This document shows positions 26,698-58,988 of a stretch of DNA of 64,000 nucleotides, one piece after another. This DNA is from a virus. Each line of letters starts with the position of its first letter. Positions within the stretch are counted from its first letter, which is position 1. Location of the stretch: IMG/VR virus record IMGVR_UViG_3300033508_000214, positions 1 through 64,000 of that record. One strand, given 5' to 3'. The position numbers and the translations under genes were made by a program. Below the pieces are notes generated by a model that was not told the origin of the DNA, did not search any database, and saw only the letters and a program-made list of their open reading frames with translations.

Positions 26698-27147
26698 CTA
26701 CGCATGATACTGGTATCTTACCTGTACCTGTACCTCTCCTACACCATAGGGTATTAAAAGAGATTCGTCTGTTGTAATACTAGCTACTAGTATTTCCGTA
26801 GTTTCATACCCATTTACTGAGTCATACACTATTTGACGGTTATTATTAATTACTGTTTCTATATCTTCTAACAGTAATTCTAATTCTTCCTGGGGGCTAT
26901 CTGCATTTTTACAGTATACCTTTATTGATATCCCGAGATAGGCCCAGGTAAACGAAGGTAGGTACTCCCTTTGCTCAGATCCAGCTGATATATATATACA
27001 TGGAAAACAGTTAACCTCATCCCAAAATTTTAGAAAGGGAAAAGCCGATCCATAAAGGTTAGACTTATAAGTTCCCGTACCATCAATTTCTTTAAATTTT
27101 TCAGCTAATGCCTTAATTATACTTGTTCTTCTGGACATATTCTCCAA
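26698..27147 (-). CDS. Tail terminator (T5 p142-like)
   Basis: 149 aa; RTSIIKAL..FWDEVNCFP..EQREYLPS..ITTDESLLIPYGVGEV; upstream of the tube gene. Confidence 0.75.
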   Translation of the reverse strand: MENMSRRTSIIKALAEKFKEIDGTGTYKSNLYGSAFPFLKFWDEVNCFPCIYISAGSEQREYLPSFTWAYLGISIKVYCKNADSPQEELELLLEDIETVINNNRQIVYDSVNGYETTEILVASITTDESLLIPYGVGEVQVQVRYQYHA

Positions 27148-28061
27148 CCTTTATGATGCTTTTTACTACCTTTTAATACTTTACACAAAGAACTTGTATC
27201 TAAGCTATACAGTCGAGAAAATTGGCTAGCGTTATCTACCGTATATATCACACCATCTGGGGATATAATACGTGGATATACTATCCCTCTTGATACAGCG
27301 GAATTCGCCTTCGAGTATCTAGTACCTTTTAATAGTACTAATTTAGTATACTTATCTGGGTATGCTTCAGCTAACCATTTATGTGTTTCACCCGAAGAAA
27401 TAGCTCTTACTATATTATAAGATATACCAGTATCTTCTGATATAGTAAGTAAACTTAGGCATCTATCATCTATTAATAAATCTAGTAGTTTAATTACTAA
27501 CTCATTAGAAATTTTTGAAGCGGAACACTTATCACCGTACTTAGGTTTTCTATTACCTTTTAAATTTATTAGTATATTATACTTTTCAGGGTATTCTCTT
27601 GATAACCACATATGGCTAGAGCCTCTTGAAATACCTCCAATTATACCTACTGATACCTTAGTAATATTAGATATTTCGCTAAAGGATAACTCAGTATTGA
27701 TTACTAATAGGTTGAAGCATTCCTCGATTTGAGAATTGGAAAATTTAGCATTACCATTAAGTTCACCATAACTAATAGGTAATTGTTCTGCTTTATAACA
27801 AGTATTAAATCCATTGTCTACTGCGTTATATATCTCAATAGTCTCGTTTTCAAACTCATTTAAATCTGTAGTGCTACATTCTGCCAAGATTGTATACTCT
27901 GGTAATCCGAAAGTTATATACGCTTGATTCATTTTTACACTATGATTATTAGACTTTAATTCTCTAATATGTCTATTGAATCTATTCTCTATATTTTCAG
28001 ACTGACCAATATACACTTTATTAGTACCATTAAAGTTTAGCTTATAAATTCCACATGTCAT
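27117..28061 (-). CDS. GIY-YIG homing endonuclease with repeated HTH/NUMOD-like modules
   Basis: MTCGIY..VYIGQSENIENRF; two HKWL-ending repeats; C-terminal SPDG..HHKGW module. Confidence 0.9.
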   Translation of the reverse strand: MTCGIYKLNFNGTNKVYIGQSENIENRFNRHIRELKSNNHSVKMNQAYITFGLPEYTILAECSTTDLNEFENETIEIYNAVDNGFNTCYKAEQLPISYGELNGNAKFSNSQIEECFNLLVINTELSFSEISNITKVSVGIIGGISRGSSHMWLSREYPEKYNILINLKGNRKPKYGDKCSASKISNELVIKLLDLLIDDRCLSLLTISEDTGISYNIVRAISSGETHKWLAEAYPDKYTKLVLLKGTRYSKANSAVSRGIVYPRIISPDGVIYTVDNASQFSRLYSLDTSSLCKVLKGSKKHHKGWRICPEEQV

Positions 28062-28134
28062 GCTACTTTCTCCTCGTAAAAGAAAGGCTAGACAGCATTA
28101 CGAGTACTGTCAGGGCCGCTAAACCCGTTCACCT
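28062..28134 (-). ncRNA. Conserved structured 5' leader (copy A) of GIY-YIG gene
   Basis: AGGUG..GGG/CCC hairpin, GACAGUA/UGCUGUC stem; loop CUCGUAA complementary to UUACGAG at the SD; matches copies at 31553 and 57777. Confidence 0.7.
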
Positions 28135-28142
28135 GTATTTGA

Positions 28143-30615: not shown

Positions 30616-31552
30616 TTATTCCTTATTAGGTGCTAGGGTCCGGCCCTTATGCGCAGGTGTCTTACCTGCAAATAATCTTCCTAAGCAACTATGGCTTAGG
30701 TTATGCTCTCTGCAAAATGCTCTAACACAGGTAACTGTATAAACTAGGCCTTCAGGAGATATAATACTAGGTAAAACTAGGCCTTTAGTTTCTGCTGTAT
30801 TAGAGTTAAACACTCTGGTACCTTTAATACTAAGCATATGTTGATACTTTTCTTTATCATACTCACTAAGCCATTTATGTGTACTACCTTTAGAGATACT
30901 CTTAACTACCCACCTAATTCACTTTTGTTACTTGAGCCACTTTAGTAAGTGGTACTATAGGGTTACTAATAATATATTCTAATACACTTATTATGCTATC
31001 ATTAGAGAACTTAGAACTACGGTTATTCTCACCTAAATTACGTGAATTTTTCAGGCTAGCTAACTGCAAGTACCTATCTGGGTACTCATCTGCTAACCAC
31101 CTATGCATACTTCCTTCCAGTATTTTAGCTATTACATGCTCAGAAACCACTGTTAGTTCCGATATTTCATTATAGCGTAGTTTAGGGTAGTCTATTAAAT
31201 AGTTGAACGCTTCTAATACTTGTGCATTGCTAAATTTAGATAATCCATTTAATTCCCCACATTGGGGTATATATTCTCCTGCTTTATATGCGCTATTAAA
31301 GCCATTATCTACTGCATCCCATATTTCTATAGTTTCGTTTTCAAAATCATTTAGTTCTTCTATAGAACATTCACATAGTACCTCTAATGTAGGGTTACCA
31401 TACTCTATATAGGCTGCCCGCATTTTTCTAGCATGGGTACGGGATTTAAATAAAGCTAAATGATCATCTAACCGTTTCTCTATTCTGCGGCTCTGCCCTA
31501 TATAAACTTTATCTGTACCAGTAAAGTTTAATTTATAAATTCCTACTGTCAT
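30616..31552 (-). pseudogene. Frameshifted GIY-YIG homing endonuclease
   Basis: 212-aa GIY-YIG ORF stops at 30914; homology to 27117..28061 resumes one frame over (VVKSISKGSTHKWLSEY..ISPEG..HKG). Confidence 0.8.
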
Positions 31553-46310: not shown

Positions 46311-46850
46311 AAGAAACCCGGTCAGATATTATCTGACCGGGTTTCTTTTGGATCTCAACCTTACACCAAACTGACGGACCTGGTGGCGGCTACCCTGGCT
46401 TACACCAAACTGACAACGCTATGATTTTCATAGCGCCGATTTTTGCTCGCCCTTTCACAACCTCATTATACTCTTTTCTGACCCTAGGAGTAGCAAATCG
46501 CAAAATATATTTTTTTCGTTGTTTTTTCGCACTCACAAATTGATAGCTGTTGTTTTTTCGCACTCACAAATTGATAGCGCTATCATTCTGGTAGCTTGCT
46601 ATGATTTTTGTAGCATTCCCCCTTCGTGGCGCCACAGTGGCCTTGTCAACAGTGAAAAACTGATTGTGTTTCTGCGCCACAGTGGCCGCTCGACTGCGCC
46701 ATTCTACTACAGTGCCCGGTCGATTGTCAAGCCCAGATTTCCGCGCTTCGGGTCAGGAAATCCATAAATTTAAAAAATTTTGTGTTGCAAAAATTTGCAC
46801 TTGTAATTTATTTACAATTATTGTATAATATAGTAAATTAGGAGAAAAAT

Positions 46851-47516
46851 ATGACTTGTGGAATTTACTTACTTACATTTGGGGAAAATTTATACTATGT
46901 TGGTCAGTCTATAGATATAGAAAGAAGATATGAAGAGCATTTATTAAATATTAAAAAAGGCTCTGCTAGTACAAAAATGCAAGATGCGTATAGTGCTTTT
47001 GGACTACCAAAACATTCTATTCTAAAAGTATGTAATAGTTATGAGCTGGATGAATATGAAAAATTTTATATAATTCAATTTAATTCATACTATAAAGGTT
47101 TAAACTATAATAGTGGGGGAGCTGGAGTAAAATATGGTGTATTTGAAGAAAGTATGTTTTATACTTTAAAAGGAATACTTAAAGCTTATTGTATAAATAA
47201 AGTTTCGGTAGATAGACTAGCGTCGTATCTAAATACTAGTCCATCAATAGTAATTGATTTATTAGCTGGTAATAAATATACAATGATTAGAGATGTATTT
47301 CCAGAATTGTATGATATAGCTATTAATAAGTATAAAGATGCTAATAAAATTATTAATACGTACCCTACAATAGTTAATGATAAAGGTGAAGAAGTAACTA
47401 TACCTTACCGTGGGGCATCTAAGTTTGCTAAAGAAAATAACTTAAATCCTGCAAATTTGTCTAAACTGCTGAAGGGTTCCGCCCATCGTTGTGGCACGTG
47501 GAAAAGAGCATATTAG
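46851..47516 (+). CDS. GIY-YIG homing endonuclease
   Basis: MTCGIY..YVGQSIDIERRY; own promoter TTGTAA-N17-TATAAT at 46801-46829. Confidence 0.85.
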   Translation: MTCGIYLLTFGENLYYVGQSIDIERRYEEHLLNIKKGSASTKMQDAYSAFGLPKHSILKVCNSYELDEYEKFYIIQFNSYYKGLNYNSGGAGVKYGVFEESMFYTLKGILKAYCINKVSVDRLASYLNTSPSIVIDLLAGNKYTMIRDVFPELYDIAINKYKDANKIINTYPTIVNDKGEEVTIPYRGASKFAKENNLNPANLSKLLKGSAHRCGTWKRAY

Positions 47517-48027: not shown

Positions 48028-48177
48028 GTATGTTAAGGGAACTCTCTGATGAGTCTGACCCTAGGTTTAGCGAGTGCTATTCCTGAATACAGACGAAACC
48101 CTAGACCATCAATCGTATGTTGCTGAAACATTCTCAGCCTTCACCATACGCTCAACCTAGGGTAAGAGCTTGCATAC
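48028..48177 (+). ncRNA. Type I hammerhead ribozyme
   Basis: CUGAUGA (48046-52), stem II GUCUG/CAGAC, GAAA (48095-98), stem III CCCUAG/CUAGGG, GUA cleavage triplet (after 48164), stem I CUCU/AGAG extended by GUAUGU-UAAG/CUU-GCAUAC. Confidence 0.8.
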
Positions 48178-56181: not shown

Positions 56182-56256
56182 ATGCTTTTAGTTCAATGGA
56201 TAGAATAAATTTATCCTAAAGGTTAGAAATGCGTTCAAATCGCGTAAAGCATACCA
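56182..56256 (+). tRNA. tRNA-Arg(CCT), weakly paired
   Basis: Acceptor atgcttt/aaagcat, loop atCCTaa, TTCAA, CCA; two G-U pairs in the anticodon stem. Confidence 0.6.
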
Positions 56257-57685: not shown

Positions 57686-57771
57686 GGATGCTTGGGGGAG
57701 TGGTTGAACCCATCTGACTGTAAATCAGACCTGTAAAAAGCGCGTTCGTTCAAATCGAGCAGTATCCACCA
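57686..57771 (+). tRNA. tRNA-Tyr(GTA)
   Basis: tctga-ctGTAaa-tcaga, long variable region, TTCAA, CCA. Confidence 0.9.
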
Positions 57772-57776
57772 TTTAA

Positions 57777-57850
57777 AGGCGAAAAGGGTTGCTCCATGCC
57801 AGTACCGTAAATACTGGCTAGCCTAGCTTTCTTTTACGGAGAATATTAAA
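57777..57850 (+). ncRNA. Conserved structured 5' leader (copy C) of GIY-YIG gene
   Basis: AGGCG..GCCAGUA/UACUGGC stem..UAGCCU; loop CCGUAAA complementary to UUUACGG at the SD. Confidence 0.7.
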
Positions 57851-58570
57851 ATGACAACAGGAATTTATAAGTTAAACTTTATTGGTACCGATAAAGTTTA
57901 CATAGGTAAAGGTACCAATATAGAAAGCAGACTAGCAAGGCATATTAATTTACTTAAAAATAATTCACATTCTAGGAAGATGAATGCAGCCTACGCAGAG
58001 TTTGGCACTCCTATAATGGAGATTTTATGCGAATGCTCTATTGAAGAGTTAAATTCATTTGAGAATGAGACTATTGAAATATACAGTTCCGTAAATAACG
58101 GGTTTAATACTCTATACTGTGCAGAAGCTATGCCAGATGGTAGTTTATGCCCAGGAGAACTAAATGGTAGAGCAAAGTATTCTAATATCCAGATTACCGA
58201 GGTATTCAATATACTCGTTGATAGTCCTACACTACTATACAAAGGGATATCCAGTATAACTGGTGTCTCTATTAATGTGATTGAGGAAATAGCTAGAGGT
58301 GCAAGACATAAATAGTTAGCTACACTATTTCCAGAAAAGTACACAAAGTTATTTTTATTAAAAAATACCCGTAGATCGAGATCTAGTTCTGCAAAAGCTA
58401 AAGCTAAGGGTACTACGTATAAACAAGTACAGTCTCCGCATGGAGAACTATATACAGTAGATAATATTTATAAGTTTGCTCAAGAACATAGCTTAGACGA
58501 CTGCAACCTTTGTAAATTATTAAATGGCAAGGCAAAATCTGTAAAAGGATGGAAATTAAGTATTATATAG
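57851..58570 (+). pseudogene. GIY-YIG homing endonuclease with in-frame TAG
   Basis: TAG at 58313-15 replaces the Trp of the HKWL motif; the frame continues LATLFPEKY..SPHGE..VKGWKLSII to TAG at 58570. Confidence 0.8.
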
Positions 58571-58576
58571 TATAAT

Positions 58577-58651
58577 GTCGCATTAGACTTCTGGTGATGT
58601 CCTCAGCCTTTCACGCTGATCAGAGGGGATCGTAACCCCTATGCGACTCCA
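58577..58651 (+). tRNA. tRNA-Glu(TTC)
   Basis: gtcgcat/atgcgac, tcagc-ctTTCac-gctga, atypical T-loop ATCGTAA, CCA. Confidence 0.8.
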
Positions 58652-58794
58652 AAATCCCTGGGATGGGATAAGACTCAACCAACAGCTAGACAGCCTCTGG
58701 GCGAATCGCTGCGGTGCCCAACAATGAGCTGAACCTAGCATGGCTTGACTAGGTTCCCATAATTAAACTGATTTTTCTTAGTTAGTTTAATTAT

Positions 58795-58877
58795 GGGCAA
58801 CTGGCATATACAAATAGGTACAGTTTCTCGCCTTAGAAGCGAGGCTTTTCCCGGTTCGAGTCCGGGGTTGCCCACCA
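58795..58877 (+). tRNA. tRNA-Leu(TAG), atypical D and variable arms
   Basis: gggcaac/gttgccc, ctcgc-ctTAGaa-gcgag, TTCGA, CCA. Confidence 0.75.
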
Positions 58878-58903
58878 ATTAAACTGAATAATAAACTACC
58901 AAT

Positions 58904-58988
58904 GCGAGTATGGGGAAATTGGCTAGACCCAGGAGACTTAAAATCTCCCGCTTTAAGCATATCAGTTCGAATCTGATTACTCGCACCA
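58904..58988 (+). tRNA. tRNA-Leu(TAA)
   Basis: gcgagta/tactcgc, ggaga-ctTAAaa-tctcc, long variable arm, CCA. Confidence 0.9.

Follow-up and report, generated by a model that had tools for sequence, protein, structure and literature searches.

Homing endonucleases need sparing expression to persist, and to our knowledge the control described for them so far consists of the idiosyncratic SD-hiding hairpins of T-even phages. The window considered here (the whole stretch of 64,000 nt that was analysed, part of a 96-kb IMG/VR phage record, G000) contains three GIY-YIG homing endonuclease genes that are each preceded by a ~75-nt leader, and direct reading and alignment give these leaders one common layout. 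What kind of RNA is this leader, does it belong to the nuclease genes that it precedes, and what might it do for them?

The phage carries T5-like structural genes, including those for a fused prohead protease-capsid protein, a head completion protein and a tail tube terminator; the match to T5 p143 is weak, and the capsid protein is only ~36% identical to those of T5-like Vibrio phages in GenBank. ARAGORN finds eight tRNA genes in the phage. Four of these eight pass the threshold of the Rfam tRNA model, and those that fall short, Arg-CCT, Glu, Leu-TAG and Leu-TAA (window 58577-58988 and 56182-56256), may be atypical. The GIY-YIG genes behind the leaders match Pfam PF01541, and the window has a fourth gene of this type:

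27117..28061, minus strand: GIY-YIG homing endonuclease gene 1 (314 aa, intact, with an I-HmuI NUMOD-like C-terminal domain)
30616..31552, minus strand: GIY-YIG gene 2, behind leader copy 2 (frameshifted; 212-aa ORF at 31552-30914)
57851..58315, plus strand: GIY-YIG gene 3, behind leader copy 3 (154 aa; catalytic domain only, truncated relative to gene 1)
46851..47516, plus strand: fourth GIY-YIG gene (more distant, 34% identity; no leader)

Gene 1 runs at its 3' end past ATG 27138, where the tail tube terminator gene starts. The C-terminal DNA-binding part of gene 2 lies in another frame (30906-30616) and is 41% identical to the C-terminus of gene 1. Genes 2 and 3 look damaged (by the frameshift and by lack of a DNA-binding domain, respectively), yet both of their leaders are intact. 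The fourth gene serves as an internal contrast; as the original prediction had it, the leader is absent there and the gene has a promoter of its own, a sigma70-type TTGTAA-N17-TATAAT that can be read upstream at 46793-46829.

The three leaders and their parts are as follows:

28062..28136, minus strand: leader copy 1; P1 28134-28131/28088-28085, P2 28126-28124/28115-28113, P3 28111-28105/28097-28091, P3 loop 28104-28098, pseudoknot partner 28079-28073 and then GAG of the SD, AUG 28061; model score 94 bits
31553..31626, minus strand: leader copy 2; P1 31626-31623/31580-31577, P2 31618-31616/31607-31605, P3 31603-31597/31589-31583, P3 loop 31596-31590, pseudoknot partner 31570-31564, AUG 31552; model score 96 bits
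57777..57850, plus strand: leader copy 3; P1 57777-57780/57821-57824, P2 57787-57788/57794-57795, P3 57798-57804/57812-57818, P3 loop 57805-57811, pseudoknot partner 57833-57839, AUG 57851; model score 80 bits

From 5' to 3', each of the window's three copies consists of the P1 5' strand (AGGY), GAA, the P2 hairpin (GGG..CCC), P3 (7 bp with a 7-nt loop), UAG, the P1 3' strand (GCCU), a pyrimidine linker, a 7-mer complementary to the loop, the SD and the AUG; copy 3 begins 6 nt past tRNA-Tyr (57686-57771). The P3 stems of copies 1, 2 and 3 are GACAGUA/UGCUGUC, GGUAAUA/UAUUACC and GCCAGUA/UACUGGC, and the corresponding loops and partners are CUCGUAA/UUACGAG, CUAGUGA/UCACUAG and CCGUAAA/UUUACGG, each partner being the exact reverse complement of its own loop. 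These leaders, stems, loops and complementary 7-mers lie base for base where they had been predicted. The leaders fold as a three-way junction of P1, P2 and P3 with a pseudoknot between the P3 loop and the SD flank.

More than 70 distinct copies of the leader were found in viral and metagenome contigs by pattern scans and covariance models. One covariance model (R1) was built from the window's three copies and a second model (R2) was also used. A scan of metagenomes in which P3 and the tail were left free gave six new distinct copies, all with perfect loop/partner complementarity, and a viral scan with relaxed P1 gave at least 120 stretches. Among the matches listed (80 loci of the latter scan), R2 confirms 82 matches, 66 of them distinct; it also detects a diverged copy in L169 (P1 UGGA/UCCA, loop/partner CUAACU/AGUUAG) before an HNH-type ORF. 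The consensus runs through a variable P1 (4-6 bp), CGAARR, GGGUAGCUCCCC, UG, P3 (7 bp), CUAG and P1', and the P3 loop has 6-7 nt of the form 5'-C(C/U)NNNN(N). Whole-record searches give one to three copies per phage. Among 185,579 prokaryote genomes, the motif was found in no more than two small MAG contigs. In one of these, the Fermentibacteria contig L339 (1-56; 410-3777), the leader lies ~350 nt from a tmRNA 3' end and heads a 211-aa ORF without assignment, and a 68-aa ORF and then a primase-helicase gene follow downstream; these surroundings suggest an integrated element of satellite type rather than a nuclease cassette.

The three-way junction and pseudoknot that had been proposed are borne out by covariation in P1, P3 and the pseudoknot, and this extends to homologs beyond the window's three copies. 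Across ten distinct copies every pair of P3 and of the pseudoknot is formed (100%), and both sides have changed at five of the seven P3 pairs and six of the seven pseudoknot pairs. Overall, 97.6% of cells are paired in this set (versus 82% when shuffled and 30-50% in slid registers), eleven pairs are changed on both sides, and none of 500 shuffles reaches the observed pairing score. In the 66 further distinct copies among the matches listed, three of four P1 pairs and all seven P3 pairs covary, the inner P1 pairs being GC in 37 and AU in 26 copies, and AU in 31, GC in 26 and CG in 6.

The loop and its partner vary together in the same way. Among the matches listed, 64 copies with 34 different loops were parsed, and in 60 of them the full loop can form Watson-Crick pairs with the tail; when loops are dealt to other tails or shuffled, complementarity of at least 6 nt occurs in 1.5-1.8%. 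The position of this duplex relative to the start of the gene is nearly fixed. Again among the matches listed, it reaches as far as the second base of the SD in 62 of 63 copies, the 3' end of the partner being GG in 43 copies and AG in 19 (followed by AG, GG or GA), and the start codon lies 7-8 nt past the partner in 45 of 59. Coverage of the SD is partial, usually two of its 4-5 bases, and is zero in L006/L174, where the partner stops 2 nt short. Energies of the nested folds are unremarkable (MFE z-scores -0.3 to -1.1). A pseudoknot without unpaired loop nucleotides is sterically tight, and probably only 5-6 of its pairs can form alongside a full P3.

Does the leader belong to the gene or to the site? 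In the closest relative, L076 (capsid 86% identical), the insertion sites of copies 1 and 2 are both empty, with neither nuclease gene nor leader. At the copy-2 site of L076, two hairpins after the capsid gene are followed directly by the head completion gene, and at its copy-1 site the upstream gene overlaps the tail terminator gene by ATGA. At both sites the leader and nuclease gene of the window occupy exactly the interval that is empty in L076, and the SD of the downstream gene is provided in the window by the 3' end of the inserted nuclease gene. Since the L076 sites lack both parts, this comparison shows the leader and the nuclease gene as one inserted cassette, the two parts of which arrived together. 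The idea of a mobile RNA-plus-nuclease unit, put forward before any relative had been compared with the window, fits these empty sites well.

Orthologs of the cassette have kept the fold. That of copy 2 in L006/L174 lies at the same site and differs from copy 2 by compensatory double substitutions (P3 pair 5 from A-U to G-C, pseudoknot pair 1 from C-G to G-C), and the L182 ortholog likewise differs from copy 2 by compensatory changes. Relatives L016 and L041 have at the copy-1 site a GIY-YIG gene with an ordinary promoter in place of the leader. In the surroundings of capsid homologs (79 loci, 717 kb), the leader was found only in the known ortholog.

The genes behind the leader are far more diverse than the window suggests. 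By PHROGs, the 59 distinct downstream ORFs among the matches listed include 39 of endonuclease VII type, 9 GIY-YIG and members of several HNH families, and Pfam adds one LAGLIDADG, one PD-(D/E)XK and one DUF559 to the ORFs of this list. The six copies of the metagenome scan precede GIY-YIG genes of another subtype, an HNH gene (L173) and a PD-(D/E)XK gene (L177; PF11645, E=1.5e-18). The same leader thus heads at least five unrelated nuclease superfamilies. The leaders of L175 (before a GIY-YIG gene) and L177 (before the PD-(D/E)XK gene) are almost identical, and the leader must therefore have been exchanged between unrelated nuclease genes. It was said in the original prediction to travel with GIY-YIG genes; this describes the window's three copies correctly but is too narrow, as endonuclease VII/HNH, PD-(D/E)XK, LAGLIDADG and DUF559 genes have it too. 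Autoregulation by the nuclease, which had also been suggested, is unlikely because unrelated nucleases are headed by the same conserved RNA core.

Looked at from the side of the nucleases, the leader is sporadic. It is present in only one other distinct copy at 59 loci of GIY-YIG homologs, and at 7 of 79 loci of endonuclease VII homologs. A loop-SD design as a general trait of homologous nucleases was considered and rejected; it appears at 6 of 48 endonuclease VII loci, 4 of them carriers, with ~2 by chance.

R1 finds a weaker fourth copy at the edge of the window (G000 64000-64079, plus strand, equivalent to L004 1501-1580; its first base is the last of the window), directly before a TROVE/Ro60-vWA gene (L004 1578-2891). 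P1 is kept in this copy and covaries (AGAC/GUCU), and P3 is kept, while P2 and the pseudoknot partner are lost. It looks like a relic of nuclease gene loss, because L169, which holds the nearest relative of the Ro60 gene, has an intact leader and an HNH gene upstream of its Ro60 gene. Such a relic fits selection on the fold only while the leader heads a nuclease. In seven loci of related phages (L157, L160, L161, L162, L167, L168 and L172) tRNA-like modules precede the Ro60-like gene, ~130 nt upstream of 1501, with a T-arm GGTTCGAGTCC, a D-arm GTAGCTCAGTTGGTAGAGC and an CTCTGTTTCGCC element. Modules at this location are as expected for Y RNAs of the YrlA type, and the phage of the window has the leader relic there instead.

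The leader is an uncatalogued RNA, as had been surmised from the window. No family of Rfam 15 matches it at gathering thresholds in the window and 14 further loci, and searches at E<=1-10 with single copies and 13 loci return only tRNAs, tmRNA, DUF2815 RNA and chance matches. The DUF2815 RNA (RF03084) lies in two leader-bearing contigs (L222 2843-2901 and L235 10721-10780). Among GenBank phages, blastn with the leader gives nothing above chance and megablast with the region gives no match, and a full-text literature search found no description of a leader of this kind.

The nearest described parallel is in the T-even phages, whose homing endonucleases are restrained by RNA structures that sequester the RBS; hairpins of this type are known for I-TevI, I-TevII, I-TevIII, segB and Aeh1 mobE (PMC2988022). 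As there, a leader RNA in cis takes in the SD of a phage homing endonuclease (here on computational evidence), and the cassettes lie in late operons and tRNA regions. The structures themselves are different. In place of the simple SD stem of the T-even genes, a loop pairs with a downstream strand, and the resulting pseudoknot is carried by a three-way junction whose core is conserved; promoters, where seen, lie upstream of P1 and none is inside the structure; and a single conserved RNA family extends across the nuclease superfamilies. The leader is thus a real, widespread and uncatalogued structured RNA and, in function, most likely a variation on the known theme of RBS sequestration in homing endonuclease genes. 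The T4 design itself is also present among the GIY-YIG homologs; in L022, L024, L029, L039 and L028/L033/L038 a TTGACA/TATAAT promoter lies inside a long hairpin ~100 nt before the start, with the SD in the 3' arm.

What would such a leader do? Its constant geometry, namely an anti-SD CC or CU at the start of the loop, a partner that runs into the SD, and the spacing to the AUG, argues for control at translation initiation. It seems quite likely (a probability of roughly 0.6), judging from the anatomy of the leaders, that it is a portable translational brake of homing endonucleases in which the SD is masked by a scaffolded pseudoknot. P1 closes the three-way junction that bears the P2 and P3 hairpins, all of the P3 loop pairs with a stretch of 6-7 nt whose last two bases are the first two of the SD, and by tying the 3' tail to the junction P1 holds the SD region beside the loop. 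The pseudoknot would then vie with 16S rRNA for the SD, so that translation of the nuclease would stay low; the cassette could thus be tolerated in late operons or directly after tRNA genes without an excess of DNA-cutting enzyme. Because the pseudoknot duplex and the SD:anti-SD pairing are similar in estimated strength (~-6.5 to -7.6 and ~-6.6 to -8.9 kcal/mol, respectively; ~-14 kcal/mol for the junction), a brake rather than a lock is suggested, that is, damping and not complete shut-off.

The places where the leader begins bear on how it would be used. In many copies a sigma70-like promoter or -10 box lies immediately upstream and puts the predicted transcript start at P1 (the promoters of this lineage may differ); in others a tRNA 3' end or a stop codon comes first, the distance to the start of the leader being 0-12 nt. 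With P1 at the start of the transcript, or after a tRNA or stop codon, the leader should therefore be part of every nuclease message, unlike in T4. No conserved promoter-like sequence was found between P3 and the SD, where P3, P1' and the linker all vary. An internal promoter that can be read in copy 1 (CTGACA-N17-TAGCCT) was rejected, since the family shows free variation in P3 and P1' and the window has no excess of CTAGCCT. The pyrimidine linker as the true anti-SD, which appears in the RNAfold MFE structures of copies 1 and 2, was also rejected, since linkers elsewhere are not pyrimidine-rich. Likewise, pairing in trans with an RNA labelled as a hammerhead through the 9-mer GGTTTAGCG (28117-28125 in P2 of copy 1, and 48064-48072 in the loop of the other RNA) was discarded because the 9-mer occurs at chance-level frequency.

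A passive brake of this kind may not account for everything that is conserved. About 25 nucleotides of the junction and P2 (CGAARR, GGGUAGCUCCCC, UG and CUAG) are near constant while P1, P3 and the pseudoknot vary freely, although this figure is inflated in that the scans demanded GAA, GGGTNGCTCNC, TG and CTAG; conservation of the junction and P2 seems to exceed the needs of a passive brake even though part of it was imposed by the search patterns. The leader could instead be a regulated switch, in which the junction and P2 form a pocket for a small molecule or for a protein of host or phage; binding would make or break the pseudoknot and so time translation of the nuclease, for instance to a late stage of infection, rather than simply damp it. 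This is a possible but rather unlikely reading. In preQ1-II, SAM-II/V and fluoride riboswitches the SD or its flank contributes a strand to a pseudoknot, and variable helices are flanked by conserved nucleotides that stay unpaired. The leader resembles them in its SD-flank pseudoknot, its variable helices and its conserved unpaired nucleotides, and differs in matching no Rfam model of those classes and in heading selfish nucleases, not metabolic genes. Copies found by covariance model alone (L169 and L193:2749) retain the core, and with the leader always in the nuclease message a promoter of the T4 type inside the structure cannot lift repression; both points speak for a switch. On the other hand, the loop has no decoy site or conserved alternative pairing beyond 4-5-nt chance matches, the associated genes give no hint of a ligand, the sequence of P2 differs among subgroups (GGGUUUAGCGGCCC, GGGUUGCUCC and GGGUAGCUCCCC), and the near-constancy of the core reflects in part what the patterns required. 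The prediction that the core (CGAARR-GGGUAGCUCCCC-UG ... CUAG) is the pocket of a new riboswitch or protein-operated switch, or else a new small ribozyme, is a doubtful one; if true, production of nucleases from at least five unrelated families would be confined to one particular stage of infection or co-infection, and the leader would act as an RNA sensor dedicated to selfish genes.

Less probable still is that the leader is a processing or self-cleaving element, which would release the nuclease message from a late-operon transcript or a tRNA precursor, or else give it a more stable 5' end. In pistol and similar small ribozymes, too, all nucleotides of a hairpin loop take part in a pseudoknot, the core of the leader is highly conserved, and the positions of the copies 0-12 nt after tRNA 3' ends, stop codons and transcript starts would suit such a role. 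However, models of the hammerhead, pistol, twister, twister-sister, hatchet and HDV-like ribozymes give no match at E<=10 in copy 1 and L197, and at 13 loci Rfam ribozyme models remain without a match at E<=1; GAA / U / UA, the strands of the junction, do not match a hammerhead core, and a role in translation is suggested by the constant arrangement of partner, SD and AUG.

The leader is very unlikely to be a divergent member of the Rfam family int-alpA (RF02996). This RNA belongs to integrative elements and has an integrase/alpA gene context, whereas the leader lies before nuclease genes of lytic-type phage contigs. The satellite-like surroundings of the L339 copy, with a tmRNA 3' end and a primase-helicase, favor a relationship, but the motif is nearly absent from prokaryote genomes and the RF02996 model matches none of the copies or records searched: searches at E<=10 over the window's own genome and 49 leader-bearing records, at E<=0.1 over 47 other phage records and at E<=1 to 10 on individual copies all come out empty, and the family threshold of 35.8 bits is not reached. 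The same model is also without a match in E. coli CFT073 and phage P4. Judged by these model searches, a remote relationship between the two RNAs is possible but unsupported. Finally, an element that acts as DNA, its interleaved inverted repeats serving as operator, recombination site or homing site, is hardly credible, for although a ~45-bp conserved core present 3-4 times in the genome could promote cassette recombination, tolerance of G-U pairs is confined to one strand (U-G in P1 and P3 of copy 1), the orientation and the distance to SD and AUG are fixed, and the half-sites are gene-specific though the proteins are unrelated.

In many uncultured phages, one conserved and strongly covarying RNA module heads nucleases of at least five superfamilies, its pseudoknot rewritten to match each gene's own SD flank. 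The leader is a well-supported candidate for an Rfam family, and it could be used as a marker for free-standing homing endonuclease cassettes and their insertion borders. As a design principle it combines a compact natural scaffold with a programmable anti-SD loop, and its over-conserved core could yet accommodate a ligand, a protein or a catalytic role.
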